A stretch of DNA of 64,000 nucleotides, taken from positions 370,844 through 434,843 of the forward strand of contig JBFWVR010000005.1 in NCBI GenBank assembly GCA_050246635.1, given 5' to 3'. Below, piece after piece: positions 14,172 to 44,393 of the stretch; position 1 is the first letter of the stretch; the number at the start of each line of letters is the position of its first letter. A model generated the notes under the pieces. The model searched no databases. It had not been told where the DNA came from and saw only the letters and a program-made list of their open reading frames with translations. A program made the position numbers and the translations under genes. This DNA comes from Vicinamibacterales bacterium. Lineage in GTDB: Bacteria; Acidobacteriota; Vicinamibacteria; Vicinamibacterales; UBA2999.

Positions 14172-14177
14172 GGTCGA

Positions 14178-19842: not shown

Positions 19843-19858
19843 TGCAAGGCGTACGCCC
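19843..19858 (-). promoter_or_regulatory. weak sigma54-type promoter match upstream of the GT4 gene
   Basis: The minus strand reads GGGCGTACGCCTTGCA. GG/GC spacing is correct and TTGCA is perfect, but the -24 box is poor. The predicted TSS is ~44 nt before ATG 19788. Confidence 0.3.
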
Positions 19859-19970
19859 GCGCCGTAGCAGGCTATTCAGGGGGATCAGGGTGACTTTGGT
19901 GGAACTAGTGGGCAGGACGTTGCCCTGTTGCGCCCCGTGGGTGAACGGCGGGTGCCGCCGGACACGCCCC

Positions 19971-25221: not shown

Positions 25222-25290
25222 CGGTCGGCTCCAGTTGCTGTTCCGGATTAGGGGACGAGGGGGGGAACCTCGACGCTGATCAACGGATCG

Positions 25291-25305
25291 GCAAGTGGAG
25301 TGCCA
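25291..25305 (-). promoter_or_regulatory. sigma54 (-24/-12) promoter upstream of beta-helix paralog 2
   Basis: The minus strand reads TGGCACTCCACTTGC. The predicted TSS is ~25279, 58 nt before ATG 25221. Confidence 0.55.
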
Positions 25306-25535
25306 GCTTGAACGGGAATCGCGCGGCACCGGCCGCCGGGCACCGTGCGCAACAGACTTGTGATCGTGGCGCCAGGATTGTCAGCGCCGATCGACGCCTG
25401 GTGGATCAGGACGGCGCAGGAGAGGACGAGCGGCACGACGCCGGCGCGGCGCGGAGGGATCACGCCGCCACGGGACGTCGGGCGGCGCAGGCACGGGTGC
25501 CGTGCGCAATGGGCCGCGGCGCCGTGCGAATGCGC

Positions 25536-27050
25536 TCAGCGCACGTTGGCGCGTGCCGTGCCGGCGAGCGCGCGCCGCGCGGCGTCGAGCACGGCCGCCA
25601 CGTTCGCGCCGGCCGCGTCGGCCGCGGCGCGCCGCTGCGCCTCCGCGGACAGCACGGGCAGGTCGTGCGCGCCGGCGAACCACGATGCCCATCGCGCGTC
25701 GGCGGGAAACTGGTTGTCGCCCGGGTAGCGCCCGGCCGGGCCACCCGCGAACACGTTCCCGCTGACCTCACCGCCAGGGAAGTAGGTCGCGATCGTGTCG
25801 TCGCCGACACCGGCGCCATCGCCCTTGATGCCGTAGCGGTTGTGGCGCACCAGGTTGTCGCGGAAGACGAAGCCCGTCGTGGGGCGGCCGTAGGCGCTGA
25901 TCACGTTGCCCGAGTGGACGACGGTGTTGCGCTCGACGTGGATGTCGGTGGCGCCGTCGCCAATCAGCAGGAAGACGCCGTTGCCCCCCCACGCCGCGGC
26001 GTCGACGTCGTAGAGCACGTTGTTGGCGATCGTCACCTGGCGGGTCTGCCGGCTTGGCGCGTTGTCGTCGTGCCCCAGGATGTTGAACGCGGCCGCGACG
26101 TGCCGGACGACGTTGCCCTGGAAGACGACGTCCTCGATGCCGCTCCAGGGGGCGCCACCTTCCTGGTTGCGCGGCGTGAACACGATGGCCGGCCCCGGCT
26201 GCGCCGCCTGCCAGTTGTGCTCGAACAGGTTGCCCTCGATCCGGACACGGCGGGCGTTCTTGAGCTCGAACAGGTTCTTGACGTCCCACGGCCCCCCACG
26301 CCACGCGACCGGCTTGGCGAGGTGGTTGCCGATGACGCGGATATCCGAGGGCACGAGCCCGCGAATCGACGGGTCGCCACCGCCGAACATGACGTTCTCG
26401 CCGGCGGCTTCCAGGTAGTTGTTCACGATGTCGAACGGGCCCGGGCCGTTCCACCCGCCAATCGCCTGTGAGTCGACACCGTCGGACTTGATGTCGGCGA
26501 TGTAGGAATTGCGGATCGTGGTCGAGGCGCTGTTGAGCGCGACGCCACGCCGTTGGCCGCGTTCCGGCGCGCCATGGATGTAGCAGCGGTCGATCTCGAG
26601 ATCGTGGGGCACGTCGGCGGCGCGTTGCCGCTGCCCTTCACCGAAGGCGACCACGTCGCCGCCGCCGGCGGTCGGGCCCAGCTCGAGCAGTCGCAGCCGC
26701 CAGTGGTGGGCGCCCGGTGCGGTACGCAGGGCGGGCTCGTCATTGGGGGAGCGAAGGCGGGCGAGGCGTGCCGCGTCGGCCGGGCGAATTCGCCGTCCCT
26801 CCGTCGGGATTCCGTCACTGCTGGCCGACGAACTGACGGTGATCCAGGCGTCGCCGTCCTTCGCGGGCAGGACGAAGTTGCCGCTGAACGTCGCCCCCGC
26901 TTCGACAAGAATCGTGTCGCCGGGCCGCGCGGCATCGAGTGCGGCCTGGAGGTCGTCTCCGGCGGAAACCCGCAGAACGCGGTCTTGAACGGCCAAATCC
27001 GCGGTCGCGAGCACCAGGGCCACGAGCAGGAGCAGGTGTCGGACGTGCAT
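25536..27050 (-). CDS. secreted beta-helix enzyme, paralog 3 (core only)
   Basis: 504 aa, ATG start, signal-like MHVRHLLLLVALVLATADLA. The core blocks are conserved (DSQAIGGWNGPGPFDIVNNYLEAAGENVMFGG, VKNLFELKNARRV). Confidence 0.8.
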   Translation of the reverse strand: MHVRHLLLLVALVLATADLAVQDRVLRVSAGDDLQAALDAARPGDTILVEAGATFSGNFVLPAKDGDAWITVSSSASSDGIPTEGRRIRPADAARLARLRSPNDEPALRTAPGAHHWRLRLLELGPTAGGGDVVAFGEGQRQRAADVPHDLEIDRCYIHGAPERGQRRGVALNSASTTIRNSYIADIKSDGVDSQAIGGWNGPGPFDIVNNYLEAAGENVMFGGGDPSIRGLVPSDIRVIGNHLAKPVAWRGGPWDVKNLFELKNARRVRIEGNLFEHNWQAAQPGPAIVFTPRNQEGGAPWSGIEDVVFQGNVVRHVAAAFNILGHDDNAPSRQTRQVTIANNVLYDVDAAAWGGNGVFLLIGDGATDIHVERNTVVHSGNVISAYGRPTTGFVFRDNLVRHNRYGIKGDGAGVGDDTIATYFPGGEVSGNVFAGGPAGRYPGDNQFPADARWASWFAGAHDLPVLSAEAQRRAAADAAGANVAAVLDAARRALAGTARANVR

Positions 27051-27158: not shown

Positions 27159-27174
27159 TGGCGACACCCTTGCT
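27159..27174 (+). promoter_or_regulatory. sigma54-type promoter match upstream of the EEP-family gene
   Basis: TGGCGACACCCTTGCT has exact GG/GC spacing and a perfect -12 TTGCT, with two mismatches in the -24 box. The predicted TSS is ~27185, 142 nt before ATG 27327. Confidence 0.4.
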
Positions 27175-27326: not shown

Positions 27327-29738
27327 ATGACATCACGGGGGATTACTGCCCGGCTGCGCGCCTGGTCCGGCATGCGCGGCCTCCTGCCTCTCACGGCCCT
27401 CGTTGTTCTTGCACTCGTTGGCACGGCTGGCCGCCTGCAGGCCGCCGCGGCCGACATCGTGCTCTACGCGTCGGACGTCACGTCGCTCGCCGGCAACTGG
27501 CGGATCGCCAACGACAGCACCGCCGCCGGCGGCAAGCTCCTGCAGAGCGACGACAACGGCTTCAAGCAGACCGACACGGCGCTCGCCTCGCCGTCGCACT
27601 ATTTCGAAATCGACTTCGACGCCCCGGCCGGCACCCCGTACCACGTCTGGCTGCGGCTGCGGGCGCGTGGCAACTCCAAGTGGAACGACTCGGTGTGGCT
27701 CCAGTTCTCCGACGCCGTGAACACGAGCGGCTCCGCCGCCTACGGGCTGGGCTCCGGGTCCGGCCTGCTCGTGAACCTCGAGCCGTGCAGTAACTGCGGG
27801 GTGTCGGGCTGGGGCTGGATGGACGGGGCCTATTGGCTCCAGAGCGCCCCGGTGGTCAGCTTCGCGAGCGGCGGCACGCACCGGCTTCGCGTGCAGACGC
27901 GTGAGGACGGCGTCGAGATCGACCAGGTCGTGCTGAGCCCCGCCACCTACCTGAGCAACGCTCCCGGCGCGGGCTCGGGGGACGCGACGATCGTGGCGAA
28001 GGGGAGTGGCGGCGCCTCCAGCCCGTTCTACGGCAGCGCCCAGGCGGTGCCCGGCACCATCCAGGTGCGGGACTACGACCTCGGAGGCGCCGACGTCGCC
28101 TTCCACGACACGACGGCCGGCAACTCCGGTGGCGCCTACCGCTCCGACGACGTCGACCTGCAGTCGAGCGCGGATGGCGGCCACAACGTCGGCTGGTTCG
28201 CGGCGGGCGAGTGGATGAAGTACTCCGTGAACGTCGCCACCGCGGGGACCTACACGGCGACCCTGCGCGTCGCGTCGCCCAACACGGGCACGACCGTGCG
28301 CCTGATGTTCGACGGCAACAACGCGTCGGCGACCGGCGAGGTCCCGAAGACGGGCGACTGGCAGACGTGGCGGGATCTCCAGATCCCGGTCACGCTGCAG
28401 GCCGGACCGCAGGTGATGACGCTGCGTTCGGACCTGGGCGGGTTCAACGTGAGCCGGGTGACCCTGGCGCTCGTCGAGAGCAACGGCGGGTCCGGCGGCG
28501 GCAGTGGCAGCGGTGCGCTGGCCCCGTACGGCGGCACGCCCGTGGCGCTGCCCGGCACGGTGCAGGCCGAGCGGTACGACGAGGGCGGCGCCGGCGTCGC
28601 CTACGGCGACGCGACCGCGGGCAACAGCGGCGGCCAGTTCCGCGCCGACGATGTCGACATCGAGAAGTCGGGCGAGGGCGGCTACAACATCGGCTGGACC
28701 GACGCCGGCGAGTGGCTGAACTACACGGTGCAGGTCGCCAGCGCCGGCAGCTACACCGTGGGCCTGCGCGTCTCGTCCACTGCGGGCGGCACGATGCACG
28801 TCGGCTTCAACGGGCCCAGCAGCGTCTGGCAGAGCGTCAGCATCCCCAACACGGGGAGCTGGCAGAAGTGGACGACGGTCAACCTGCCGGTGTCGCTCGG
28901 GGCGGGCACGCAGCAGATGACCGTCCGGTTCGACACCGGCAAGGTCAACCTGCACCACATCGCGGTGACCGCCGGGACGAGCACGCCGCAGCCCCCCGCT
29001 TCCGGCGGCTCCAGCGACACCTTCCGCATGATGACGTGGAACATCCAGCACGGGGAGAAGAAGAACGGCAGCTACGATCCCCGCGCGCAGGCGCAGTTCA
29101 TCGCGAGCCAGCACCCCGACGTCGTGGCCCTCCAGGAGGTCCAGACCTGGGACGAGAACCAGCCGGAGAAGTACCGCAGCCTGCTCGAGGAGTTCACCGG
29201 CGACAACTGGACGCTCCAGTGGGCGCCCGTGAACAGCAAGTCGTCCACCGAGGGCAACATCCTGCTGATCCGGCTGCCGGTGATCTCGTCGACGTACCAC
29301 CAGATGCACGCGACGAGCGACTGGGACGCGATGTACGTCAACCGCTCCGTGGCGCAGGCGACGATCGCGGTGGGCGGCCGGTCGGTGCATGTCTTCAGCA
29401 CCCACGTCGACTACTACAGCACCAGCGCCCGCACCCTCCAGGTGGCCGACCTCATGGACTGGTCCGCCGGCTTCGGCGGGCCGCGCATCGTCGGCGGCGA
29501 CTTCAACTCCTGGTGGGGGGAGTCGTGGATCAAGTCGATGATGACGGAGTACACCGACACCTGGCAGGACGTGACCGGCAGCAACCAGAACGGCTACACG
29601 GTGAACAACGCGGTGCGGTTCGACTACCTGTTCCGCGCGAAGACCGGCGCCTCCCAGGTGACGCCGATCAAGTGCTTCGTGCCCGTCACCGACCTGTCGG
29701 ACCACAACCCGGTCGTGGCCGACTACCGCGTGCAGTAG
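27327..29738 (+). CDS. secreted endonuclease/exonuclease/phosphatase (EEP) family enzyme with unassigned module + 2x CBM6-like
   Basis: 803 aa and the only plus-strand gene inside the locus. It has a signal peptide (an alternative start is ATG 27372). The shared module is at residues ~42-223, followed by two CBM6/35-like domains. The C-terminal EEP domain carries WNIQHG, ALQEV, GGDFN and SDHNPV. Confidence 0.8.
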   Translation: MTSRGITARLRAWSGMRGLLPLTALVVLALVGTAGRLQAAAADIVLYASDVTSLAGNWRIANDSTAAGGKLLQSDDNGFKQTDTALASPSHYFEIDFDAPAGTPYHVWLRLRARGNSKWNDSVWLQFSDAVNTSGSAAYGLGSGSGLLVNLEPCSNCGVSGWGWMDGAYWLQSAPVVSFASGGTHRLRVQTREDGVEIDQVVLSPATYLSNAPGAGSGDATIVAKGSGGASSPFYGSAQAVPGTIQVRDYDLGGADVAFHDTTAGNSGGAYRSDDVDLQSSADGGHNVGWFAAGEWMKYSVNVATAGTYTATLRVASPNTGTTVRLMFDGNNASATGEVPKTGDWQTWRDLQIPVTLQAGPQVMTLRSDLGGFNVSRVTLALVESNGGSGGGSGSGALAPYGGTPVALPGTVQAERYDEGGAGVAYGDATAGNSGGQFRADDVDIEKSGEGGYNIGWTDAGEWLNYTVQVASAGSYTVGLRVSSTAGGTMHVGFNGPSSVWQSVSIPNTGSWQKWTTVNLPVSLGAGTQQMTVRFDTGKVNLHHIAVTAGTSTPQPPASGGSSDTFRMMTWNIQHGEKKNGSYDPRAQAQFIASQHPDVVALQEVQTWDENQPEKYRSLLEEFTGDNWTLQWAPVNSKSSTEGNILLIRLPVISSTYHQMHATSDWDAMYVNRSVAQATIAVGGRSVHVFSTHVDYYSTSARTLQVADLMDWSAGFGGPRIVGGDFNSWWGESWIKSMMTEYTDTWQDVTGSNQNGYTVNNAVRFDYLFRAKTGASQVTPIKCFVPVTDLSDHNPVVADYRVQ

Positions 29739-29750
29739 CCCCCGCATCGA

Positions 29751-30773
29751 TCACCCGCCCGCCGTCACGGCGGGCGGGGACCCGGCCGTGGCCCGCCGCA
29801 GGTGCCGCAGCCGCCAGCATCCCGCAATCAGGCCGAGGAACTGCAGCGATCGCAGTTCCTCGGTCAGTGTCTCGAGCGCCGGCGCGCCGACCCGCAGCGA
29901 GCGCAGCCAGCGGCCCCACTGCTCGAACGCCTGCCGCCAGAGGAACCTCGGCATCCCGCCGATCCGGGCCACGCGCGTCATGTCGATGTCGCTGTAGACG
30001 TCCTGCAGCATCAGCGCGTGCGTGCGCCCGCTCCAGAAGAACCACTGCCGGAAGTACGTCCGCGTCAGCCGCCCGGGCGGCACGTAGTGCCGCACGCTGC
30101 TGCCGGGATCGTAGTACCCGGCATAGAGCCCGAACCGGCGGAGGCGGCAGAAGATCTCGTGGTCCTCGCCGGAGGTCAGCGTGTTGTCCACCCGCCCCAG
30201 GTCGGTGCGCCACCCGCCGACGGCCTCGATGGCGGTCCGCGCGAACGCCAGGTTGGCGCCGATGGGCAGGCGCTGGCCCGTCAGGTCCGCGCGGTAGTCC
30301 GCGGGCTCGTCCCCGTAGTCGATCAGGGCAAGAGGGCCCCAGATGTCCTGTGCCGGGCGGGTGAGCAGCTCGGGGGGCGGCGTCACGCTCCAGCGAGGCA
30401 GCACCTTGCCGAAGGTGAAGGTGACGTCCCGCGCGCGGAAGACCTCGACGATCCGGCACAGCCAGTCGCGCGCGGGCCGGACGTCGTCGTCGGTGAGCGC
30501 CAGCACGTCGCCACGGGCCGCGCCGAGCGCGGTGTTCAACGCGAAGCTCTTGCCCTGCGCCGGCTCGTGGAGCGCCCGGACCGGGAACGGTCCCGCCGCG
30601 CATGCGTCGCCGATGACGCGCGGGGTGTCGTCGGTGGAGTTGTTGTCGACGACGAGGATCTCGACCGCGCAGTCGTGCGGCGGGTCCAGCTCCTGCAGGG
30701 CCGCCAGGGTCTCGCGCAGCAGGGCCGCGCGGTTGTACGTGCAGATGACCACCGACACGTGGTGGACGATCAT
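29751..30773 (-). CDS. GT2 family glycosyltransferase
   Basis: The start ATG 30773 (MIVHHVSVVICTYNRAALL) overlaps the upstream stop (ATGA). DNNSTDDT and LTDDD motifs are present. This is the downstream half of the 737-aa track ORF. Confidence 0.85.
   Translation of the reverse strand: MIVHHVSVVICTYNRAALLRETLAALQELDPPHDCAVEILVVDNNSTDDTPRVIGDACAAGPFPVRALHEPAQGKSFALNTALGAARGDVLALTDDDVRPARDWLCRIVEVFRARDVTFTFGKVLPRWSVTPPPELLTRPAQDIWGPLALIDYGDEPADYRADLTGQRLPIGANLAFARTAIEAVGGWRTDLGRVDNTLTSGEDHEIFCRLRRFGLYAGYYDPGSSVRHYVPPGRLTRTYFRQWFFWSGRTHALMLQDVYSDIDMTRVARIGGMPRFLWRQAFEQWGRWLRSLRVGAPALETLTEELRSLQFLGLIAGCWRLRHLRRATAGSPPAVTAGG
29754..29778. terminator. perfect 11-bp GC hairpin at the convergent EEP/GT2 junction
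   Basis: The arms cccgcccgccg and cggcgggcggg flank a 3-nt loop (tca). The hairpin begins 16 nt after the EEP stop and lies inside the last codons of the convergent GT2 gene. There is no U-tract. Confidence 0.45.
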
Positions 30774-31756
30774 GATGCGCCTCCCGTCGAGCGCGCCGCC
30801 GCGGTCAGGCCGCGGGCGGTGACGCCCCAGCGCGTGGCCGCGTAGCCCGCCACGAACGCGACGTCGATCGCGCGATCGAGGGCCTCGACCGGTGCGCCCG
30901 TCGCAATCCGGCCCACCACCGCGGCCGCGCCGGTGAGCCCCCGGCGAATCAGGTGGAACGGCAGGCCGAAGACGGCGCGCGCCGGCGCCGGGCCGGCCTG
31001 GCCGTCCATCACGGCGTTGGTGATGCCCGACCAGTAGAACCAGCGCAGGAAGTAGCTGACGCGCGCGCGGTGCGCCGGCACCCAGTGACGGACGCGGACG
31101 TCCGGCAGGTAGAGCGCCCGGTACCCGGCCTGCTGGATGCGCTGGCACAGCTCGTGGTCCTCGCCCGAGAGCAGCGTGCCGCGCAGTTTGCCGAGATGGG
31201 TCGCGAATCCGCCGAGCGCCGTGAACACCTCGCGCCGGACGGCCATGTTGGCGCCGAGGAAGGTCCGCGGGCCGAGTGGCGACGGCGCGGGGCCGTAGTC
31301 GAGCAGCGCCAGCGGCGCGCCGAGGCGCGCCCGGCGTGTCGCCGCCTGCCGGATCCAGCCCGGCACGCCGTCCTGCCATCGGGGCGTGACCGGGCCGCCC
31401 ACCAGCGCGACGGCCGGATCGGCCAACCCGCTTCGCAGCGCGTCCAGCCATCCGTCCGCGACGTTGACGTCGTCGTCGGTGAACGCCAGGACGTCCCCCC
31501 GGGCCACGGCCAGCGCGGCGGCGAGCGCGTGCGACTTGCCGGGGCGTGGTTCGTAGATCAACCGGAGGGGCACCGGGAACGACGCCTGGTGCCGTTCCAC
31601 GACGGCGCCGGTCTCGTCTCGTGACCCGTTGTCGACCACGATCAGTTCGTCGGCCTCGACGAACGGCTGGCGCGCGAGGTGCGTCAGGCACTCGTCGAGG
31701 AGCGTCGCGCGGGTGAAGGTGGCGATGATTACGCTGATCGACGGGGCGTTGGTCAT
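30770..31756 (-). CDS. GT2 family glycosyltransferase
   Basis: 328 aa beginning MTNAPSISVIIATFTRATLL, with DNGSRDET and FTDDD motifs. It is a paralog of the downstream GT2. The start overlaps the flippase stop (ATGA). Confidence 0.85.
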   Translation of the reverse strand: MTNAPSISVIIATFTRATLLDECLTHLARQPFVEADELIVVDNGSRDETGAVVERHQASFPVPLRLIYEPRPGKSHALAAALAVARGDVLAFTDDDVNVADGWLDALRSGLADPAVALVGGPVTPRWQDGVPGWIRQAATRRARLGAPLALLDYGPAPSPLGPRTFLGANMAVRREVFTALGGFATHLGKLRGTLLSGEDHELCQRIQQAGYRALYLPDVRVRHWVPAHRARVSYFLRWFYWSGITNAVMDGQAGPAPARAVFGLPFHLIRRGLTGAAAVVGRIATGAPVEALDRAIDVAFVAGYAATRWGVTARGLTAAARSTGGAS

Positions 31757-33348
31757 GAGACAGCCTCCGAGAGCCGGCCGCGGCCGAGGGGAGTCGCGCG
31801 CAGGGCCTGCCGCGCGTAGCCGAGATACCGCGTCCGCAGGTCCCGATCGACGCCGACGAGGGCGACGACGGTGAGGTAGAGGGCGCCGACGGCCGCGCCC
31901 TCGAGCAGGACGCCGGCGAGTGTCGTGGGCGGCCAGGCGGTGCGCACCAGGGCGCAGGCCGCAATCGCGGGCACCAGGCCCGCGGCGGGTGCGCGACCGA
32001 CCGTCCAGAGGAACACGGGCGTCGGCACGCCCGCGCGGCGGCAGGCCACCGGCAGCAGGATGAACAGGTTCGCGACGAGCACGGGAATGGCCGTGCCCGC
32101 CGCCACGCCGTTCATGCCGAACGGGCCCACCAGGATCAGGCTGAGGCCGAGGTTGGCCAGCGCCTCACCGAGCGACGCGAAGGCAACGAGCCGATGGTGC
32201 CCGCTCCCGAGCAGGACGTTGCCGAGTGGGCCCTGGCCGACGAGCACGACGCCCGCCACCGCAAGGATGTAGAGCGGCGTGACGGCGCCCCCGAAGCCGG
32301 GGCCGATCCACAGCTCGATCAGCGGAGCCCCGAACCCGACCACCACGACCGTCGCGCCGGTCACGAGGATCAGCGCGATGCGCGTCGTCTCGATGAGCAT
32401 CGTGCGCACGGCCTCGGACTGCCCGCGCGCCTGCAGGGTGACCACGATCGGGAACAGGAAGCCGTTGAACTGGTTGCAGAGGCGCCGTTGGTACTCCGCG
32501 AGGCGGAGCGCCACGGCGTAGACGGCCACCGCGGACGTGCCCAGCGCGGCGCCGATCACGAGGTTGTCGAGGTTGAAGCCGATCTGGACCGCGATGTCGA
32601 TGACGAACAGGTAGAGGCTGAACGTCGTCACCTCGGCCACGAGGGCGCGGCTGAACCCCGAGGGCCGGATCCGCAGCTCCGGCATCGCGACCCGCGCGGT
32701 CCAGGCATACGCCGCATAGCTTGCGAGGCCGACCGTGGTCGTGGCGGCGACGAGCGGCAGCAGGCCATGACCGCTCGCCAGCACGACGTAGGTCACCAGG
32801 CCGTTCACGAGGGCCACCGCGATGGCCACGCCGTTGTTGAGGGCGAAGCGCTGCCGGGCGGTGGTGGCTGCGCCGAACACCGTCATCGGGAAGCCGACGG
32901 CGATTCGCACCCCGAGAATCGCCAGCACCCACTGCCCCTGCTGGATCTGTCCCGGGTCGAGGTTGGGGAACCGCGGGATCACCCAGGTCACCAGCGCGGC
33001 GACGCCCACCGCGGCGAGCAGGCCCAGGCCGGCGTGCACGACGACGAAGGTGCTGAGGATTCGGTTGACGCGGGTGGTGTCGCCGCGGGCATCGGCGTCC
33101 GACACGTGGCGCACGATGCCCGTGCCGTAGCCGAGGTCGAGCAGCTGGAAGTAGTACGTCAATGACGCGACCAGCATCCACAGGCCGTAGTCCTCGGTGC
33201 CGAGGTGCCGGATGGTGAACGGCATCAGCACCAGGCCCAGGCCGATGTTCACGGCCAGGAGCGCATACTTCGTCACGGTGCCCGTGAGCACGTTCCGGAC
33301 GGGCGAGCCGGCCGGGCCGCCGCCGGGCGTCGGCACGGTGGCGCTCAT
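31753..33348 (-). CDS. Wzx-type polysaccharide flippase (MOP superfamily) 1
   Basis: The start is ATG 33348 with GGGAGG upstream. The ~531-aa protein is highly hydrophobic with many TM helices. Its N-terminus (VTKYALLAVNIGLGLVLMPFTIRHLG..YGLW) is typical of polysaccharide-biosynthesis flippases. Confidence 0.8.
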   Translation of the reverse strand: MSATVPTPGGGPAGSPVRNVLTGTVTKYALLAVNIGLGLVLMPFTIRHLGTEDYGLWMLVASLTYYFQLLDLGYGTGIVRHVSDADARGDTTRVNRILSTFVVVHAGLGLLAAVGVAALVTWVIPRFPNLDPGQIQQGQWVLAILGVRIAVGFPMTVFGAATTARQRFALNNGVAIAVALVNGLVTYVVLASGHGLLPLVAATTTVGLASYAAYAWTARVAMPELRIRPSGFSRALVAEVTTFSLYLFVIDIAVQIGFNLDNLVIGAALGTSAVAVYAVALRLAEYQRRLCNQFNGFLFPIVVTLQARGQSEAVRTMLIETTRIALILVTGATVVVVGFGAPLIELWIGPGFGGAVTPLYILAVAGVVLVGQGPLGNVLLGSGHHRLVAFASLGEALANLGLSLILVGPFGMNGVAAGTAIPVLVANLFILLPVACRRAGVPTPVFLWTVGRAPAAGLVPAIAACALVRTAWPPTTLAGVLLEGAAVGALYLTVVALVGVDRDLRTRYLGYARQALRATPLGRGRLSEAVS

Positions 33349-33379
33349 GCGCGACCTCCCGTCCGGTGTGGCCTGGTGC

Positions 33380-34432
33380 TCACGCCGGCTCCTGGCGCGT
33401 GGCGCTCGTGTCGCGGACCGCGGTGTCGGATGCGTGGCCGCCAAGCCAGGCTTCGCGAAGGTAGCCGCACAGCCACACCAGGCGGACCGACCCGGCAAAA
33501 CGTCCCGCGGGGTCGCCGGCCGCCGCGGCGCGGGCGGCCTGCCAGCCCCGGCTGGCGGCGTCCCGCCAGAGGTAGCGCGGAACGCCCAGCAGGTGCGGGA
33601 CGGGCGGGCGCGCCGTGGCCGCCAGTCGCGCGACGTCTCGGCCGTTCTGGAAGAGCCAGCGACGGCAATACTCGCGCGTCAGGCGCGCGCGCGGCACCCA
33701 GTGACGCACGACGGCCTCCGGCTCGTACACGCCGCGATACCCGGCGTCGAGGAGCCGGAGGAACAGGTCATGGTCCTCGCCGGTGCGCAGCGTGCCGGCA
33801 AGCTTGCCCAGGTCGGCGCGCAGGCCGCCGACCGCCGCCATCGCCGAGGCGCGCACGGCCATGTTCGCGCCGATGGGCACCACCTGGGGGTGCGCCTGGT
33901 CGATGGGCAACCGGGTGTCGCCGTTGTCGGGGATCGCCAGCACGCCGTGCAGGGCCGGTGACATCCAGGACGGGGGCGGGACTTCCCAGTTCGGGCGGAT
34001 GCGCCCGGCCACGAAGTCGGCGCCGGATTCCGCGCTTGCGGCATCGAGCGCCGCGAGCCAGTCCCGGGACGGCTGCACGTCGTCGTCCGTGAAGGCGAGC
34101 AGGTCGCCCGTCGCGTGTGCCAGGGCGGCGTTCACGGCCTGCGACTTGCCGGGCGCCGCGACGAAGAGGTAGTGGACCGCCGGCGCGTCCGGACGCCTGG
34201 CGAGCTGGCGGACGGTCTCGGCGGTGGTATCCGTCGATCCGTTGTCGGCCACGACGATCTCGAACCGGTTGCGTGGCCAGCGCTGGGCCACGAGCCCCTC
34301 GAGCGTCGTGCGCAGCAGGGCCTGCCGGTTGCGCGTCGCGACAATGACGGAGACGGTCCGATGCACTGGAACCTGGCCTTTCCGGAGGGAAGTGCGGGGG
34401 GCGGCCAGCCGCCGTCCCCCGCGTCCCGTCAC
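33380..34432 (-). CDS. GT2 family glycosyltransferase
   Basis: The protein contains VSVIVATRNRQALL, DNGSTDTT and FTDDD. The GTG start at 34432 overlaps the upstream TGA (GTGA); an internal GTG (VHRTVSV) is also possible. Confidence 0.8.
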   Translation of the reverse strand: MTGRGGRRLAAPRTSLRKGQVPVHRTVSVIVATRNRQALLRTTLEGLVAQRWPRNRFEIVVADNGSTDTTAETVRQLARRPDAPAVHYLFVAAPGKSQAVNAALAHATGDLLAFTDDDVQPSRDWLAALDAASAESGADFVAGRIRPNWEVPPPSWMSPALHGVLAIPDNGDTRLPIDQAHPQVVPIGANMAVRASAMAAVGGLRADLGKLAGTLRTGEDHDLFLRLLDAGYRGVYEPEAVVRHWVPRARLTREYCRRWLFQNGRDVARLAATARPPVPHLLGVPRYLWRDAASRGWQAARAAAAGDPAGRFAGSVRLVWLCGYLREAWLGGHASDTAVRDTSATRQEPA

Positions 34433-37400
34433 GGCTTCGGCACGATGGTGCCGTCGTTGGTGTTCGAGCCCGGGGCCGCCGTCAGGTACGTGGTCGGGCT
34501 CAGGACGATCTGGTCGAGGCTGACGCCGTCCTCACGCACCTGGATGCGCAGGGTCTGCGGCGCGGAGGTGGGGAACGTCACGGTCGTGGTCTGGTTCAGC
34601 CAGTACGCGCCGTGTTCCCAGCCCCACCCGTTGAGGCTGCTCGCGCCGGAGTCCGACGCGAGGTTGACCAGCAACCCGGAGGTCGTGCCGATCGGGTAGA
34701 TGGCGCTGCCGTTGGACTGGGCATCCGAGAACTGGACCCAGACGGCGTCGTTGTACTTCGAGTTGGCGGCGGCCTTGAGCCGGAGCCAGATCGTGTACGG
34801 CGTGCCGGCCTCGGGGGTGAACGTCACGTCCACATAGTGGATGGGCGCGGCGAGGGCCGTGTCGGTGTGCGCGTAGCCGTTGTCCGGCGTCGCCAGCCGC
34901 ACGCCGTTCGGTGAGGCGGCGTCGCTGGCCGTGGTCCACGCGCCGTGCAGCGCCGAGGTCGGGACGTCGCTGGCGTAGATGACGATGTCCGACGGCGGCG
35001 GGGGCGGCGTGGTGAACGACCATACCGGCCCCGCGGTACTGCCGTAGCTGTTGGTCGCCACGATCTGCCAGTAGTAGGTCTGGTCGGCTGCCAGCGTGTC
35101 GGGGGTGTACGACGCCTCGGCCTGCCCGCTCGACACGGTGGCGGGGGACGGCGACGTGCCGAACCGGACGTCATACGTCGTCGCGCCGGCGGCGTCCCAG
35201 CTCAGTGTCGGCTCCAGCGTGTCGATCGTCGTGCCGTTGGCCGGTGACGGAGACGTCGGCGTGGCCGGCGGATCGCTCGGCGGGTCGGTCGTGGTGAACG
35301 ACCAGACGGGGCCGTCGGTGGTGCCACCGCCGTTCTTCGCGACGACCTTCCAGTAGTAGGTGGTGCCATAGGCCAGCGAGGACGGCGCGTACGAGGCGCT
35401 CGGCGAGTCGGCCTGGACGAGCGGCGGCGTCGGGCTGGTGCCGAACGACACGTCGTAGGACGTGGCCCCGGCCGCGGTCCAGCCGAGCGTGGCGCTGGTG
35501 CTCACGCCGGTCGCGCTGTCGGCCGGCGACGGGCTGGCCGGCGCGCCCGGCGCGGCCGGCGGCTCCGGCCGCGGCACGATCGTGGTGTCGCCGCTCGGTG
35601 GTCCGGGCGGGGCATCGCGGTAGGTCGACGGGCTGATGACGATCTGGTCGATGTAGGCGCCGTCCTCGCGCGTCTGCACGCGGATGGTGTGGGTGCCGCT
35701 GTTCTGGAACCACACCTCGCCCGTGTCACCGAGCCAGTACGCGCGGTTCTGCCAGCCCCAGCCGATGCTCTGGCAGTCGGAGCAGGTCCAGAGGTTCACG
35801 AGGAGCGCGCCGGTCGTGCCGGAGCGATAGACCGGGACCCCGCCGCTGGTCACGCTGTCGGAGAACTGCACGAACACGGAGTCGTTCCACTTCAGGTCGT
35901 CCTGCGCGTGGATGCGGAGCCAGACCCGGTAGCGGGTGCCGGCCACGGCGTCGAAGGTCGCTTCGAAGTAGTTCGTGGGGCTCGACAGGGCCGGGTCCAC
36001 CGTGCCGGCGCCGGCGTCCGCGTGATGCAGCGCCACGCCGTCCGCGGCGCCCGCCGCGCTCACCTTCGTCCAGCCGCCGTGGAGGTTCGTGACATCGGCC
36101 GCGTGGATCACGACCTCGTCGGCGGTCTGGCCACCAGCGCCGGTCGTGAACGACCAGACGGGACCGGCGGTGTTACCGCCACTCGAGACCGTCGTCACCT
36201 GCCAGTAATAGGTGGTGGCCGCGGCAAGGGTGCCGGGGGCGTACGACGGGCTGGTCAGCCCCGTGGCCACGACCGACGGTGTCGTGGACGTGCCGAAGGC
36301 CACGTCATAGGTGGTGCCCTGCGGGCCGGCGGCCCAGCTGAGCGTCGGTGAGGTGCCGACCCCCGTCGCGCCATCCGGCGGGGCCGGGCTCGTGGCGCCA
36401 GGAGGCGGTCCCGACGGCCCACCGGTCGTGAACGACGAGGTCGTGGACGCGGCCTTCAGGGACGGATCCGCCACGGTGGCGTTGGTCAGCGCCACGATGC
36501 GCCAGTAGTACGTGGTCGCGGGCTGGAGGGGCGTGTCGGGTTTCCAGGAGTAGGTCTGCGGCGGGTCGTTGACCAGCTGCGCTTTCACGTTCGCCACCTT
36601 CGTGAGGTTGGCGGGCGAGGTGCCGAAGAGCACGTCGTAGCTCACGGCGAACGGCGCGCGGTTCCAGACGATGGCCGTGTCGGTCGGCACGTCGGTCGCG
36701 GCCCCGGCGGGCGAGGCGAGCGACGGCGTGTCGGGTGCCTCGGGATGGAAGTCGGCGAAGCCGGACGCGTCGTTCCACATGATGCCGAACCGGTCCTTCA
36801 TCGCCTGGTAGATGGCCGGCTTCGTGCCCGCGGGGACGAAGTAGTTGTGATCCCGCTGCCAGGCGGCGGCCAGGTTGGAGGAGGCGTTGGTGGCCACCGA
36901 CGAGGTGACCAGCATCTTCATGTGGGTGAGCCCGGTGTGGATGCGCTTCTTGATCGGCACGCCGGCCGCCCAGAGCTTGTCCATGTAGGCGTGCGTCAGC
37001 CAGAACTCCGGCCACTTCTTGTTCCGGTACTCGTTGGGCTCGAGGATGATCCGGACCGGCACGCCGGCCTGGTGCTTCGCCAGCAGGGCGTCGGTGATGT
37101 TCGGCACCGTGAGCCGGTAGATCACGAAGTCGATGAAGTTCGGTTCGGCGTTGATCTCCTGGATCAGCCGGTTGTTGAAGAGCGGTCCCTGGCCCCAGAC
37201 CATCTCCGGCGGCATCGGGTAGTCGGGCTCGAGCCGGCTGGTGTCGATCACCATCGGGGTCGGGTTGGGATACTGCGTCGCGTAGTCGGAGCAGGCGCTC
37301 TCGAGCGCGCAGGCCTCGTCCCAGTCGAGGAAGTACGGCGGCTCCGACACCCGGCTGTAGGGTTCCGGCGTCGTGTCGTTCCAGTAGCGGTCGAACCGCG

Positions 37401-37947
37401 TCTTGAAGGCGTTCACGAGGTCCGGATCGTCCGTGAACAGCACGGTCTCGTCCTTGTAGTTGGTCGACGAGACCGGCGCGAGCTCGAACGGCGTGTAGTT
37501 GGCCGAGCCGAACGTCAGCAGGTTCTGGCCGACGAAGATCGTCGACTTCCAGTGGTCGATCTCCGGGTACCACGTCGGGTGGTATCGCAGGCGGATCGGG
37601 ATCCCGTGGCTGGCCAGCCAGTAGAACTCCGCCCGGGTGTGCGGATCGATCTCGAAGATCGACCCGCGGTCGCCGATCAGGCGCACCTGGACGCCGGCCT
37701 GGAAGCGGTCGAGCAGCGCAATCGAGATCGCGTGCTCGGTCAGGTACCAGGCCGACATGTCGATCCGGACCGTCTCCGCGTAGATCTTGTCGACGAGGAT
37801 CTGGCGGACGTTGTCGACGGCCGGGAAGTAGATCTGGTCGTCCGCGGCTGCGGGGGTGGCGCGTCCCGCAAGCAGCAGGGCGAGGCCCAGCACGGTGGCG
37901 ACGAGCCGCCGCGACGAAGGACGTGGAGCGTGGGTCAGTGTAGGCAT
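34429..37947 (-). CDS. secreted phospholipase D-superfamily enzyme with 4x Fn3-like repeats and 2x unassigned module
   Basis: 1172 aa; ATG start and signal peptide (LGLALLLAGRATPAAA). The two-lobed PLD fold has two HxK...(G/A)SxN motifs (IDHWKSTIF...GSAN; LTHMKMLV...ASSN). The architecture is SP-PLD-Fn3x2-module-Fn3x2-module. Confidence 0.8.
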   Translation of the reverse strand: MPTLTHAPRPSSRRLVATVLGLALLLAGRATPAAADDQIYFPAVDNVRQILVDKIYAETVRIDMSAWYLTEHAISIALLDRFQAGVQVRLIGDRGSIFEIDPHTRAEFYWLASHGIPIRLRYHPTWYPEIDHWKSTIFVGQNLLTFGSANYTPFELAPVSSTNYKDETVLFTDDPDLVNAFKTRFDRYWNDTTPEPYSRVSEPPYFLDWDEACALESACSDYATQYPNPTPMVIDTSRLEPDYPMPPEMVWGQGPLFNNRLIQEINAEPNFIDFVIYRLTVPNITDALLAKHQAGVPVRIILEPNEYRNKKWPEFWLTHAYMDKLWAAGVPIKKRIHTGLTHMKMLVTSSVATNASSNLAAAWQRDHNYFVPAGTKPAIYQAMKDRFGIMWNDASGFADFHPEAPDTPSLASPAGAATDVPTDTAIVWNRAPFAVSYDVLFGTSPANLTKVANVKAQLVNDPPQTYSWKPDTPLQPATTYYWRIVALTNATVADPSLKAASTTSSFTTGGPSGPPPGATSPAPPDGATGVGTSPTLSWAAGPQGTTYDVAFGTSTTPSVVATGLTSPSYAPGTLAAATTYYWQVTTVSSGGNTAGPVWSFTTGAGGQTADEVVIHAADVTNLHGGWTKVSAAGAADGVALHHADAGAGTVDPALSSPTNYFEATFDAVAGTRYRVWLRIHAQDDLKWNDSVFVQFSDSVTSGGVPVYRSGTTGALLVNLWTCSDCQSIGWGWQNRAYWLGDTGEVWFQNSGTHTIRVQTREDGAYIDQIVISPSTYRDAPPGPPSGDTTIVPRPEPPAAPGAPASPSPADSATGVSTSATLGWTAAGATSYDVSFGTSPTPPLVQADSPSASYAPSSLAYGTTYYWKVVAKNGGGTTDGPVWSFTTTDPPSDPPATPTSPSPANGTTIDTLEPTLSWDAAGATTYDVRFGTSPSPATVSSGQAEASYTPDTLAADQTYYWQIVATNSYGSTAGPVWSFTTPPPPPSDIVIYASDVPTSALHGAWTTASDAASPNGVRLATPDNGYAHTDTALAAPIHYVDVTFTPEAGTPYTIWLRLKAAANSKYNDAVWVQFSDAQSNGSAIYPIGTTSGLLVNLASDSGASSLNGWGWEHGAYWLNQTTTVTFPTSAPQTLRIQVREDGVSLDQIVLSPTTYLTAAPGSNTNDGTIVPKP

Positions 37948-40197
37948 CTAAGTCGCATCCAGTGAAGTGGTCACGGCGCGGGGGACCACCGCTTCCGCGG
38001 CCGCCCGGGGGGCGGGTGCAGCCAGGGCCAGCAGGTCGTAGATACAGGCGGCGGCACGCGCGCTGGCGCCGCCGGGGCGATAGAAGAGCTCAGCGGCAAT
38101 CGCGCGCCGCCGTGGCGCGAACCGCCGCGGGTCATCGAGGCCCCGGCGGACCGCCGCGGCGACGCTCGCGCCGTCGGGCACGACGTCCGCGGCGCTGCGG
38201 AGCAGCGCCGCCTTCTGCGGGTTGATCCCGCCGTGTCTCAGCAGGTCGGGGCAGTCGATGATGACCACCGGCCGGTCGAGCAGCATGAACTCGAAGCCGA
38301 CGGAGCTGTGGTCCGTCACCAGCGCATCGGCGACGAACAGGTACGGGGACGCGTCCGCGCCGGTGGCGAGATGGACCCGCTCCGGGCGGCACAGGCGGCC
38401 GAGCCGGGCGCGCCAGTCCACGCCGCCCGACGCCCGCGTGGTGGGGTCGAGGGACCGGTCGTGGAGCTTGACGATGACGTTGACGCCCAGACGGCCGAGC
38501 CCCGCGATCACCGCTTCGCCGTGGGAGTTGAGCGAGGAGTGCGGTGACCACGTCGGTGCGTACAACACCGTGCGCGCCGCCGGGTCCAGCCCGAGCGATT
38601 CGAGGATCGCCCGGCGGTCGAGGCTGCCATCCACGAGGCAGTCGACCTTCGGATATCCGATGACGGTCCCCGTGGGGGTGCGGGGATCGACGAGGCCGGC
38701 TTCAGTGTAGCGCATGAGCCGGTCGTGGTTCGGGAACAGCAGCCGGTCGAAGGTCGCCACCACCGGCGCAATCTCCACCGGCGCGTCGAGGCCGTACTTG
38801 CCGGCCACGCCGTGGAAGAGGTGGATGCGCCGTGCCCGGCGCGGCAGCCACAGCGAGCTCCAGAAGTCGGTGTTGATGTAGGCGTCGAACTTCTGCCAGC
38901 GCGCGTCGCGGGGGCTGATGAGATCACCGGTGAGGCCGGCGTCCGCGAAGATCGTCGCCGCATCCCAGGCTTCATCGTTGGCCGTGAAGCGGAACTCGAG
39001 GCGCGGGTCGTCACGCAGCCGCTCGTACACCGGCCGGAACACCGCCAGGCTGAGCGGCGACGCGGCCTCGAACAGGATCCGGCGCCGGCCGCTGCCCGCG
39101 CGGCTCAGCCAGTCGTCCGCCGCGTGGACGGCGCGGACCACCGTGCGCCGCGTGCGGCGGTAGGCCGTGTCATGCACCAGCGGCGTGCGCGGCAGGTCGT
39201 GCGGCCGGGGCTCGCGCCGCGTCAGCCCGAGCGACCGGAGGCCGCTGCGGATGGCCTTCAGGGGGAGGAGGGCCGGCGAGCCCGCGAGCGCCGCCAGGTA
39301 GTAGCCGCGGGCGCGGCGGTCGGACGGGTCCTCCGCCAGCGCGAGGCGATAGGCGTCGCGAGCCGCGCGCGCCTGCCCCTTCCAGAACCGCTCGTATCCC
39401 AGCTCCGAGTACAGGCGGTGCCGCCGGGCGCGCAGGCAGCCGGCGGCATCGTCCCGATGCCGCGCGCACGTGTCCGCGCAGCCGCCCGCCATCTTCTCGA
39501 TGACCAGCGACTGTCCATGGAACGTCTTCTCGACTTCGCTGCTCATCGCGCCGCCGGGCCGGTGGACGGCCAGCGGCTCCGGCAGGTAGCCCACCGGGTG
39601 CCGGGACGCGATACGCAGCCACAGGTCCCAGTCCTCGACGTGCAGTTCCCGCCGCTCGTCGAAACCTCCCGCCTCGGCGATGACCTCGCGCGGCGCCATC
39701 ACCGTCAGCGTGCGTACGGTCTGGTCGCAGTGGAAGAGCGCGCAGAACTGATCCGAGGGCGGCGCGGCTGCCGCGGGGCGTGCGCCCGTGACCGGCATAT
39801 ACAGCCGCGCCACGGGCGCATCGCTCACGTGGGCCCCGGTGTGCAACAGGCCCGTCTCGGGATGGCGTGCGAAGTAGTCGACCTGGCGCTCCAGCTTGTC
39901 CGGCAGCCAGACGTCGTCGGCGTCGAGGAACGCCACGAGGCGCCCACGCGCCATCGCCAGGGCGGTGTTCCGCGCCCGGGCGGGGCCGCCGTTCGGCTGC
40001 CACCGGTAGCGCACCCGGTCGCCCCACGCCGCCACCCGCGCCTCGAGGTCGTCGGTCGAGCCGTCGTCGACGACGAGGACCTCGAAGTCGTGCCAGGTCT
40101 GGGCGAACACCGACTGCAGCGCCGCATCGATGGTGCGCCCGGCGTTGTAGGCGGGGATGACGACCGAGACGGCCGGACCGGTGGCGGACTGGATCAT
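37948..40197 (-). CDS. bifunctional GT2 glycosyltransferase / TagF-like CDP-glycerol glycerophosphotransferase
   Basis: The start ATG 40197 ([23 protein letters not shown]) overlaps the upstream stop (ATGA). The N-terminal GT2 domain has DDGSTDD and LDADD. The C-terminal half has the [16 protein letters not shown] and [22 protein letters not shown] blocks typical of the Glyphos_transf family. Confidence 0.8.
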
Positions 40198-41660
40198 GCG
40201 GGGCTCGCCTCCGGGTGGGACGCCAGCGTGCGGTGGCGCCTGGTGGGGGACGCGGGAGCTGGCGCCGTTTCGGTGGCGCGATCGCGCACGAGCTCGCGCG
40301 ACGCCACCAGGAACGCCAGCAGGTAGTAGAAGGTCCAGCTGTAGGCCACCGACGCGAAGAGCGCGCACGTGAACCAGCCGGCCAGGCCGGCGGTCAGGGC
40401 AATCGCGAGCACGTGCAGCGTGTGGCGCTCGTCGTCGGTGAGCCCCGGCACGCCGTCCGGCGCGGCGCCCCGGCGCCGCCGCACGGGCCGCAGGCGGCGG
40501 CGGAGCCAGGCCGACGTGTAGCCGGCGCGGGCGAGCAGCAGGCAGAACAGCAGCAGGCCTGCGATGCCGGTGTCGGCCGCGACCTGGATGAGCACGTTGT
40601 GCGCCTCGCGCCACTTCTCCTGGCGGCCCGGATAGTTGTAGTTCGGGAACTGGCCGGGGCCCACGCCCGTGAACGGGTGGGTGGCGAAGGTGTAGATGCC
40701 CTCCTGCATGACCGTCCAGCGCGCTTCCCGTGACCCGGTGTAGTGCAGCTCGTCCTGCCGCGGGTTCACGATCGTCTCCATGCGGTCCCAGAACGAGTGC
40801 GGCAGGAACGGTGCGGCCAGCACGACGGCGGCGAGCACGGCCGCGCCGAACGCCGGGCGCACCGTGCGGGTGAGCAGCGCCAGCGTCAGCACCATCACCG
40901 CCAGCCCGAGGAACCCGCCGCGCGACTGGCTGAAGACGACGGTCGCCAGCATCAGCACGAACGCGCCGGCACCCGCCAGCCGGAGCACCGTCGCGTGCCG
41001 GCGCGACATCGCGAGGATCGCGCCGAGTGGCATGAACGCGACCATGTTGGTCGCCAGGTCGTTCGGGTTCCCGAAGATGCCACCCACCGGCCCGGCCAGC
41101 CGGCCCCCCTCCACCAGGTTCTGGCCGCGTGCCCAGTCGAAGACCGCCTCGGCGGCCACGATGCCCGCGCAGACGAGCACGAGGCCGGCGAAGCGCTCGA
41201 TGCGTCGCGGGGTCGTCAGCGTGTTCATCATCAGCACGAAGACGAGCAGCACCTTGAGGTAGGAGTTCAGGACCTCCTGCACGGCCCCCCCGGGCCAGAT
41301 CGAGAATGGCGCCACGCCGAGCATCACGACGCCCAGGGCGGTGAGCGTCACGGTCTCCGGCGTGACCCGGAAGACGGGCAGGCGCCGCACGAAGCGGTGG
41401 ACGACCATCGGCATGACGCCGGCGAGCGCGAACAGCTCGGCCAGATGGAGCGAGGCGAGGCCCGGCACGTGATCCTGCGGCCGCAGGAGCAGCACGGTGG
41501 TGAACGCCAGCAGGCCGGTGTAGCCCCAGTCGCGCGGCTCGCTGCGGGCGGCCGTGGGGAAGCTGTCACCGGTGTGGGGCGCCGCGGCCGCGGTGGCCGC
41601 CGGTGCGCCCGGCACGGCGGGACCGCCGAACGAGAACGCTAGCCGCTCGTGCGGGGCCAT
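40194..41660 (-). CDS. O-antigen ligase/polymerase (Wzy_C) family membrane protein
   Basis: 488 aa with about 10 hydrophobic helices. The [10 protein letters not shown] loop is followed by a large periplasmic loop ending [17 protein letters not shown], as in the O-antigen ligase family. Confidence 0.8.
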
Positions 41661-42930: not shown

Positions 42931-42954
42931 GATCCGTGTCCTTCGTGTCTCCCT

Positions 42955-44340: not shown

Positions 44341-44393
44341 GGGCGCTGAACCTCCTCGGGGCCCGCCTCTGCGGGCTCGTGTTGCGATGACTC

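Follow-up and report, generated by a model that had tools for sequence, protein, structure and literature searches.

Results and discussion

Two secreted phosphoesterases encoded in an exopolysaccharide locus

We analysed 64,000 nucleotides (the window) of a Vicinamibacterales bacterium (Acidobacteriota; GenBank assembly GCA_050246635.1, contig JBFWVR010000005.1, positions 370,844 to 434,843 of the forward strand), in which an exopolysaccharide (EPS) locus carries genes for two putative secreted phosphoesterases, one of the phospholipase D (PLD) superfamily and one of the EEP family. The original prediction, made from the letters of this DNA, had taken them for dedicated remodelling or release enzymes of a polymer with teichoic-acid-like phosphodiester links. 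Judging from conserved gene order, both belong to a four-part cassette that further comprises a LicC-like nucleotidyltransferase (NTase) and a TagF-like phosphotransferase. Since the GC content of the window is 72%, spurious open reading frames (ORFs) occur in every frame and genes were therefore called by frame analysis of third-position GC (GC3), which supported the EEP, PLD and TagF-like genes as intact (Table 1). The window sequence was found in DNA runs of landfill metagenomes only, and the same search returned no RNA run containing it.

The N-termini of the PLD and EEP proteins, which were read for sequence features without a predictor program, both show a positive stretch, a hydrophobic stretch and an Ala-rich site of the cleavage type, in line with the signal peptides predicted earlier. 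Behind it the PLD protein matches PLDc_2 in two stretches (84.6 bits, cutoff 27), with additional fn3 and Ig-like matches. The two HxK...SxN motifs noticed before were read correctly (HWK...GSAN and HMK...ASSN), and their residues H97, K99, S113, N115, H307, K309, S321 and N323 are invariant among 24 homologues; both H/K/S/N sets are also kept in the PLD of the distant locus L119 described below. The Asp of the canonical HKD motif is missing in both halves, where Val and Ser stand. This Asp is not universal in the PLD superfamily, Tdp1 being without it, and its absence appears to mark a divergent clade, compatible with superfamily membership. The AlphaFold model (pLDDT 93.6, pTM 0.91) was matched by Foldseek with probability 1.0 and TM 0.55-0.69 to many structures of the PLD fold, among them phospholipases D, the PLD3/4 exonucleases, vaccinia F13 and E. 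coli PssA. The PLD start codon abuts the stop codon of the TagF-like gene (37947/37948) and at the other end its stop codon overlaps the beginning of the GT2 gene that follows (34429-34432), thus the gene is translationally embedded in a long minus-strand operon.

A profile search for the PLD family among 1.84 billion representative proteins, clustered at 50% identity, gave 540 clusters at E <= 1e-30, some of which match only the Fn3 part of the profile. The PLD domain is always followed by an Fn3-like domain with weak resemblance to the N-terminal domain of purple acid phosphatases. We scanned 17 long full-length members against Pfam. Five of them (P0403, P0406, P0414, P0422 and P0425), all distant members of the family, are single secreted proteins with a purple acid phosphatase fusion (Pur_ac_phosph_N and Metallophos), six carry DUF1349 and the rest BACON, TIG, Y_Y_Y, Big, FG-GAP or GH115_C-like modules. 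No lipid- or nucleic-acid-binding module was found in these 17 proteins, which agrees with what had been stated for the two window enzymes, and by their Pfam matches the accessory modules across the wider family are of the glycan-binding or adhesion type. The accompanying statement that both enzymes carry carbohydrate-binding modules (CBM) or Fn3 modules needs to be narrowed: the EEP protein has CBM6 and CBM35 and the PLD protein has Fn3, but the latter contains no recognised CBM, only Fn3-type domains and two copies of a module termed X. The fusions of diesterase and monoesterase suggest that the PLD product is a phosphomonoester that is hydrolysed next, hence a two-step route from diester through monoester to free phosphate. 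Such a route would be no less compatible with trimming or phosphate recovery than with the "release" of polymer originally proposed.

The EEP gene forms a transcription unit of its own, which converges with the EPS operon. Its product matches CBM_6 (1e-37), CBM_35_2 (8e-24) and, over positions 1-204 of the 225 of the profile, Exo_endo_phos (PF03372; 62.5 bits, cutoff 24.5). The catalytic motifs listed in the original prediction (WNIQHG, ALQEV, GGDFN and SDHNPV) are all present, and the catalytic residues N13, E45, H134, D166, N168, D207 and H234, which include the D-x-N and S-D-H motifs, are invariant among 27 homologues. The AlphaFold model (pLDDT 95.1) bore out the four-layer alpha/beta sandwich fold and its Foldseek neighbours (TM 0.70-0.80) were uncharacterised bacterial EEPs (4RUW, 3G6S, 3TEB), TDP2, nocturnin and BT3783. 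The last, as the apo structure 3MPR, ranked 19 (TM 0.71-0.77, 14-15% identity) and is no closer than TDP2. For the PLD and EEP models alike, the Foldseek neighbours are 10-21% identical throughout and no functional subfamily was assigned; the folds therefore do not reveal the substrates. A sigma-54-type promoter motif, TGGC-N7-TTGCT, lies about 153 nucleotides 5' of the EEP start codon. The window has four matches to the pattern TGGC-N7-TTGCW where 0.32 would be expected; four were reached in none of 100 shuffles, and the sites precede both sigma-54 response-regulator genes, a GT4-led sub-operon and the EEP gene, which looks like a separately regulated, sigma-54-dependent unit. Simple scans around the EEP gene found no sigma-70 promoters and no terminators.

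The TagF-like phosphotransferase and the nucleotidyltransferase

The gene directly upstream of PLD encodes a GT2 domain fused to a TagF-like domain, as the Pfam matches and the abutting codons confirm, and is translationally coupled both to the preceding Wzy-like gene and to the PLD gene that follows it. The longer mechanical ORF 37948-40614 was discarded, since over its first ~140 codons, which are Arg-rich, GC3 is of the non-coding type; the true start is the ATG at 40197, where coding-type GC3 begins and which has a GGAGG ribosome-binding site. The protein matches Glycos_transf_2 (1e-33) and Glyphos_transf (PF04464; 54.5 bits, cutoff 22.1), the latter only over profile positions 162-291 of 367 in the C-terminal part, and its orthologue in L119 covers positions 84-290. 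A profile built from 19 TagF-like homologues matched TagF of Staphylococcus epidermidis (1.8e-10), Cps3D (5e-9) and TarL (2.6e-3). The catalytic histidines of the family are H444 and H584 of S. epidermidis TagF (PMC5974469). H584 was aligned with the invariant His of VKLHDR by MAFFT --add, MAFFT --addfragments and Smith-Waterman, whereas the HMMER alignment placed it elsewhere. A candidate for the equivalent of H444 is an invariant His within a ten-residue stretch that is also present in L119, inside the Pfam-aligned region. When the N-terminal half of the TagF-like domain was compared with PDB sequences, nothing relevant and no alignment to a solved TagF was obtained. The motifs YAPTW and TD(H/Y)SS are present in the domain.

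The linker between the GT2 and TagF-like parts (38900-39500, residues ~230-370) has no Pfam match and contains a TPR-like stretch of 24 residues, reminiscent of the TPR domains found in TagF-like capsule polymerases. Several relatives have a TagF-like domain that stands alone or lacks the GT2 part.

The NTase at 45787-46599 had been described as cytidylyltransferase-like, and its best solved relatives bear this out: LicC, a CTP:phosphocholine enzyme (5.6e-14), a PntC-like phosphonate cytidylyltransferase and IPCT, which uses CTP and inositol-1-phosphate. By these relatives it is a cytidylyltransferase-like enzyme for a small phospho-alcohol, rather than of the TagD or IspD type, and it probably makes the CDP-activated donor for the TagF-like domain.

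A shared module of EPS-linked secreted proteins

The module X, of about 180 residues, is present in four copies in the window (51-53% identity): one in the EEP protein, two in the PLD protein and one in a secreted right-handed beta-helix protein encoded nearby. The latter (22117-25329, probable start near 25221) has an array of X, CBM6 and CBM35 as in the EEP protein, with which it shares 53% identity in X and 38% in the CBM array. X has no Pfam family of its own and gave sub-threshold matches only, to GH115_C and DUF1349; no PDB sequence matched at E <= 10. A distant X-bearing protein is encoded in L119 (11292-12992), and in distant loci X remains 45-48% identical, compared with ~26% for the EEP catalytic domain. 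The list of X homologues consists mostly of short fragments and did not reveal catalytic partners. We propose X as a candidate new carbohydrate-binding family.

Conserved linkage in other genomes

A scan of species-representative genomes seeded with PLD gave 45 loci, onto which the window proteins were mapped. A TagF-like gene stands immediately upstream of PLD in 18 distinct loci (L002 and L018 are one contig and were counted once) and two GT2 genes upstream in 6 more. In the clade of the window the order is NTase, ATPase, UDP-glucose dehydrogenase, GT2, Wzy, (GT2-)TagF-like, PLD-X and GT2, and in the 6 loci of this clade there is an EEP gene on the opposite strand, 66-71% identical to that of the window. 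In L004, from an Illumina metagenome-assembled genome (MAG), PLD is a single ORF of 1089 residues and the layout is as in the window. Furthermore, a TagF-like profile retrieved 80 metagenome loci, 43 of which had at least 1.5 kb of downstream sequence; PLD starts at most 600 bp from the TagF-like gene in 29 of these 43 and at most 4.5 kb away in 35.

The linkage spans TagF-like proteins of 44-72% and PLD proteins of 28-76% identity to those of the window, and a GC content of 54-71%. In a distant lineage, L110-L124 (54-56% GC), the TagF-like proteins share 44-47% and the PLD proteins 28-32% identity with those of the window, yet the genes still stand in the order NTase, TagF-like, PLD and an X-EEP gene lies on the opposite strand; in these loci and in L021 the NTase gene directly adjoins the TagF-like gene. 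In L119, a soil metagenome contig of 55% GC (1306-12992), the cassette lies beside a Wzm gene and two Wzt genes with Wzt_C domains, by which L119 is to be classed as an ABC-transporter-dependent glycan locus. Its PLD protein has a signal peptide, PLD, Fn3 and four TIG domains, and its EEP protein a signal peptide, X, PKD and EEP. Since the cassette is found in both Wzx/Wzy and Wzm/Wzt loci, the four-part module travels between pathway types. Conserved gene order thus supports a functional link between the TagF-like enzyme, the NTase and the two secreted phosphoesterases.

All relatives of the locus come from Vicinamibacterales or Acidobacteriota MAGs, and loci of frameshifted nanopore-derived MAGs (MFD and ERZ250395xx records) were taken for gene order only. 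In long-read assemblies (L002/L018, L009, L047 and other MFD or ERZ250395xx loci) frameshifts break up the Wzy, TagF-like and PLD genes, therefore public gene calls such as P0002 and P0010 end in Arg-rich out-of-frame C-termini. Two loci, L008 (10001-16784) and L054, have a tandem duplication of the PLD-X gene directly downstream of the TagF-like gene. In ABC-transporter systems of the L119 type, the phospho-alcohol might be a chain-terminating cap recognised by Wzt_C.

The surrounding EPS locus

By its NCBIfam matches the locus appears to be a Wzx/Wzy EPS cluster of the XrtA/PEP-CTERM type. TIGR03013 (EpsB_2) scored 483.9 bits, above its cutoff of 393.35, and further XrtA markers were the best matches for their own proteins with scores below cutoff: the XrtA-associated ATPase (TIGR03015, 312/324.5), the chain-length determinant (TIGR03007, 242/279), the tyrosine kinase (TIGR03018, 134/231), two amidotransferases (TIGR03108, 645 and 547/817) and the stp1 glycosyltransferase (TIGR03087, 299/317). 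No exosortase or PEP-CTERM protein was recognised among the window ORFs scanned, which were not all ORFs of the window. The outer-membrane export protein was assigned by reading its translation, not by a family-model scan. The locus also has two Wzx-like flippases, a Wzy_C polymerase, two UDP-glucose dehydrogenases, a heparinase II/III-like protein and two sigma-54 response regulators. The order GT2, Wzx, GT2 after PLD is the same in relatives, and the ~400-residue N-terminal region of the GT2 protein at 29751-31964 is kept at full length in them (93% coverage in L004). The ORF 13258-14247 was discarded as spurious, the real gene there being a GT4 gene in another frame.

The three beta-helix genes sit between the two halves of the EPS locus and their products are probably glycanases or lyases for its polymer. 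Two UDP-glucose dehydrogenases, two XrtA-type AsnB-like amidotransferases and the heparinase II/III-like protein are encoded at 8470-19875 and 42955-44511, which suggests a polymer that contains uronic acids and is possibly amidated; CBM35 modules frequently have uronic acids as ligands. At the locus edge a gene for a PAS-GGDEF diguanylate cyclase (7037-8491) is divergent from a sigma-54 response-regulator gene (5326-6846), a hint of c-di-GMP input into EPS regulation.

Table 1. Positions of genes, domains and motifs in the window.
Feature	Position	Strand	Basis
Secreted EEP-family phosphoesterase gene, 803 aa	27327-29738	+	Pfam, motifs, model, Foldseek, GGAGGA ribosome-binding site
EEP signal peptide, aa 1-43	27327-27455	+	
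EEP X module, aa 44-225	27456-28001	+	
EEP CBM6 + CBM6/35 array, aa 236-555	28032-28991	+	
EEP catalytic domain, aa 556-803	28992-29735	+	
Secreted PLD-superfamily phosphodiesterase gene, 1172 aa, inside EPS operon	34429-37947	-	Pfam, motifs, model, Foldseek
PLD signal peptide, aa 1-35	37843-37947	-	
Two-lobed PLD domain, aa 36-405	36733-37842	-	
Fn3-like domain, aa 406-515, like purple acid phosphatase N-terminal domain	36403-36732	-	
Second Fn3 of PLD protein	36133-36402	-	
PLD X module 1	35563-36132	-	
Two further Fn3 of PLD protein	34978-35562	-	
PLD X module 2	34432-34977	-	
Bifunctional GT2/TagF-like phosphotransferase gene, 749 aa	37948-40197	-	Pfam, start-site analysis, profile matches
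GT2 domain	~39508-40197	-	
TagF-like domain	~37951-39087	-	
LicC/IPCT-like NTase	45787-46599	-	Pfam NTP_transf_3, PDB relatives
Wzy_C/O-antigen-ligase-like polymerase	40194-41660	-	Pfam 1.2e-23, TIGR03097
GT2 downstream of PLD	33380-34432	-	Pfam
Wzx flippase	31753-33498	-	Pfam
GT2 with ~400-aa N-terminal region lacking a family match	29751-31964	-	Pfam
Upstream operon: GT2, UDP-glucose dehydrogenase, XrtA-associated ATPase, NTase, second Wzx-like protein, EpsB_2 priming phosphoglycosyl transferase, tyrosine autokinase, chain-length determinant, outer-membrane export protein	41809-53760	-	Pfam, NCBIfam
Three secreted right-handed beta-helix proteins	20009-27050	-	Pfam
X module of beta-helix protein	24592-25140		
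Sigma-54-type promoter motif 5' of EEP gene	27159-27174	+	Motif scan
Other sigma-54-type motif sites	6863-6878, 14177-14192, 55254-55269	-	Motif scan

A predicted pathway for a phosphate-linked substituent

We infer that the cassette installs a phosphate-linked substituent on a cell-surface polysaccharide or EPS and then processes it. In the cytoplasm the NTase would make a CDP-activated phospho-alcohol. The simplest guess is CDP-glycerol, as the cassette has no further conserved gene for a precursor. The GT2/TagF-like enzyme would transfer the alcohol-phosphate and a sugar onto an undecaprenyl-PP-linked repeat unit primed by the EpsB_2-type transferase; Wzx would then flip this unit and the Wzy-like protein polymerise it, and export would follow. 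Once outside the cytoplasm, the PLD enzyme, held on the polymer by Fn3 and X, would cut the phosphodiester to a phosphomonoester. The EEP enzyme, held by X, CBM6 and CBM35, would be the second esterase, either a phosphomonoesterase like BT3783 or a diesterase that cuts the other side of the phosphate. The net effect would be a trimmed or removed phospho-substituent, with phosphate possibly recovered from the matrix. That both enzymes act on a phospho-group which the TagF-like enzyme adds to the organism's own glycan has, in our estimate, about an even chance of being right; the specific order of cleavage is less certain.

Several observations weigh against this pathway. Among the 30 loci of 12 kb or more in which TagF-like and PLD genes occur together, an EEP gene was detected in only 13. 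PLD paralogues with identities of up to 73% occur in loci where no EPS gene lies within 10 kb. A clade of EPS-linked PLDs apart from these was ruled out, as the two groups are interleaved in a neighbour-joining tree; the PLD family is therefore not exclusively EPS-dedicated. The term "dedicated" in the original prediction is thus too strong. Many of the loci are from related MAGs and the counts are not of independent events; despite this kinship, three distinct gene orders and two export pathways are represented. In addition, the equivalent of TagF H444 could not be aligned by sequence. The nearest characterised relatives of PLD are phospholipases, PLD3/4 nucleases and a phosphatidylserine synthase, at 10-16% identity, and those of EEP by structure are TDP2 and nocturnin. 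To our knowledge, EPS chemistry has been described for no member of the Vicinamibacterales, and we know of no assay of the PLD or EEP enzymes or of close homologues.

Alternative functions

The two enzymes could be general extracellular degraders of organophosphates, with lectin-like modules as mere matrix anchors, that in soil would free phosphate from foreign teichoic acids, from DNA or from the head groups of phospholipids. The purple acid phosphatase fusions do resemble a machine that takes diester to monoester to free phosphate, the PLD family with its hundreds of clusters is large and paralogues stand in housekeeping or unrelated contexts. We nevertheless regard phosphorus scavenging as unlikely, since in most loci PLD lies immediately downstream of the TagF-like gene, translationally coupled within a biosynthetic operon, the linkage holds across two export pathways and the paralogues inspected had no Pho-regulon genes as neighbours. 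It is quite unlikely, too, that the enzymes are matrix nucleases that degrade the extracellular DNA of biofilms, PLD being like Nuc, PLD3 or PLD4 and EEP like ExeM, Xds or MnuA, and that the EPS locus serves their co-expression. In other bacteria biofilms are shaped by secreted EEP nucleases, the structural neighbours include PLD3/4 and TDP2, and there are weak sequence matches to Nuc (1BYR), NucT and MnuA; for PLD, however, these reach only E 0.0019 with Nuc and 25.7 bits with NucT, whose cutoff is 297. A Nuc-type enzyme was rejected by its architecture, as PLD has two HKD-like motifs in one two-lobed monomer of 370 residues and not a dimerising single-HKD subunit of ~155 residues. The 17 family members sampled carry CBM-, lectin- or Ig-like modules and none that bind nucleic acids, and a nuclease leaves the conserved adjacency to TagF-like and NTase genes without rationale.

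Transphosphatidylation is a general property of the PLD superfamily, and the fold is also that of synthases, for instance PssA, which is among the structural neighbours (TM 0.68). PLD might accordingly be a transferase that uses the TagF-installed phospho-alcohol as a leaving group for ATP-independent extracellular ligation or cross-linking of the exported polymer to another chain, to the cell surface or a surface glycan, or to a (sorted) protein, with EEP removing unused groups. The tight order of TagF-like gene and PLD would suit the installation and use of an activated group, and the locus appears to belong to an EPS system associated with protein sorting (PEP-CTERM). The relatives fused to a phosphomonoesterase and the partner EEP hydrolase point instead to degradation, and no acceptor is identifiable, the scanned ORFs having yielded neither exosortase nor PEP-CTERM protein; we give this role a slim chance. 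That the two are phospholipases acting on membranes (the own outer membrane, vesicles or competitors) and stand in an EPS locus by coincidence is highly improbable. Phospholipase D 7E0M is the top Foldseek match, followed by Streptomyces and human PLDs, and sources label homologues "cardiolipin synthase-like", but the identity to known phospholipases is 10-16%, membrane- or lipid-binding modules are absent, and both the glycan-type modules and the linkage to TagF-like and NTase genes would be left unexplained.

Implications

If the processing of a phosphate-linked substituent on the organism's own glycan is the function of the cassette, phosphorus-bearing, teichoic-acid-like matrix polymers are to be predicted in Gram-negative soil bacteria, which would matter for the aggregation of soil, the binding of cations and the pool of organic phosphodiester phosphorus. 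In soil, the Vicinamibacterales and related Acidobacteriota rank with the most abundant bacteria. A first function would also be provided for the secreted PLD-fold proteins of a large clade, so far uncharacterised and comprising hundreds of clusters at 50% identity, and the substrates of the superfamily would extend from lipids and nucleic acids to glycans. Within the library searched we found no description of an EEP and PLD pairing in an EPS locus, in agreement with the original prediction. Nor did any paper there connect an enzyme of the PLD family with exopolysaccharides or teichoic acids, or deal with EPS systems of the PEP-CTERM/exosortase type in Acidobacteria. Thus a secreted PLD-fold enzyme coupled to such a pathway and the four-gene cassette as a unit are apparently new, while TagF-like enzymes in polysaccharide loci and EEP-fold glycan phosphatases such as BT3783 were already known.

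Comparison with known systems

The PF04464 domain is common to the window protein, TagF/TarL and the TagF-like capsule polymerases of Gram-negative bacteria such as Cps3D (PMC5974469). The fusion with a GT2 (GT-A) domain is likewise similar to multi-domain capsule polymerases, and the deposited sequence of S. epidermidis TagF itself matches the GT2 part. In contrast to those systems, the window gene lies in a heteropolysaccharide locus of the Wzx/Wzy type (Wzm/Wzt in L119) and not in a teichoic acid or group 2 capsule locus, its presumed donor enzyme is LicC/IPCT-like instead of TagD- or TarI-type, and it is coupled to a secreted PLD and EEP, which they lack. Wzy-dependent pneumococcal capsule loci attach glycerol-phosphate side groups by means of WchX and genes for CDP-glycerol or CDP-2-glycerol (PMC1391919). 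They share with the window the Wzx/Wzy pathway and, as predicted here, a cytidylyltransferase and a phosphotransferase that decorate the repeat unit with an alcohol-phosphate, but they encode no secreted phosphoesterases and belong to another phylum and envelope type.

On the side of the esterases, BT3783 (PDB 3MPR) is an EEP-fold phosphatase that acts on phosphorylated yeast mannan in Bacteroides thetaiotaomicron (PMC4978465). Like the window EEP as we read it, BT3783 and BT2630 (3MPR/4C1R) of the yeast-mannan utilisation loci have the EEP fold, are extracytoplasmic, act on glycan phosphate and are encoded among glycan-active enzymes; BT3783 differs in being catabolic for a foreign glycan, in having no CBM6/35 or X modules and in its low identity. 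GlpQ and PhoD turn over teichoic acid in Bacillus subtilis, and pneumococcal Pce, which stands alongside LicC/LicD, is a phosphorylcholine esterase. The logic would be the same here, a CDP-alcohol pathway that builds or decorates a phospho-polymer and secreted phosphodiesterases that trim or recycle it, whereas their folds are GDPD, PhoD-type and metallo-beta-lactamase instead of PLD and EEP, and theirs are not one cassette. AlgL, PslG, BcsZ and PelA are glycanases or lyases embedded in EPS operons, and the window is predicted to share with them a secreted polymer-cleaving enzyme inside the biosynthetic operon of its own substrate; they cut glycosidic bonds, whereas the embedded enzyme of the window is of a phosphodiesterase superfamily. 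With the characterised PLD enzymes (Streptomyces PLD, PLD3/4, Nuc, PssA and vaccinia F13) the window PLD shares the bilobal two-HKD fold and the invariant His, Lys and Asn. Its clade, of which we know no characterised member, is set apart by the low identity to all of them, the replaced motif Asp and the PAP-N-like Fn3 that is always attached, and its family, unlike those enzymes, is always secreted with glycan-type modules. The PLD-Fn3 family may comprise the first PLD-fold enzymes with a glycan phosphodiester as their natural substrate.

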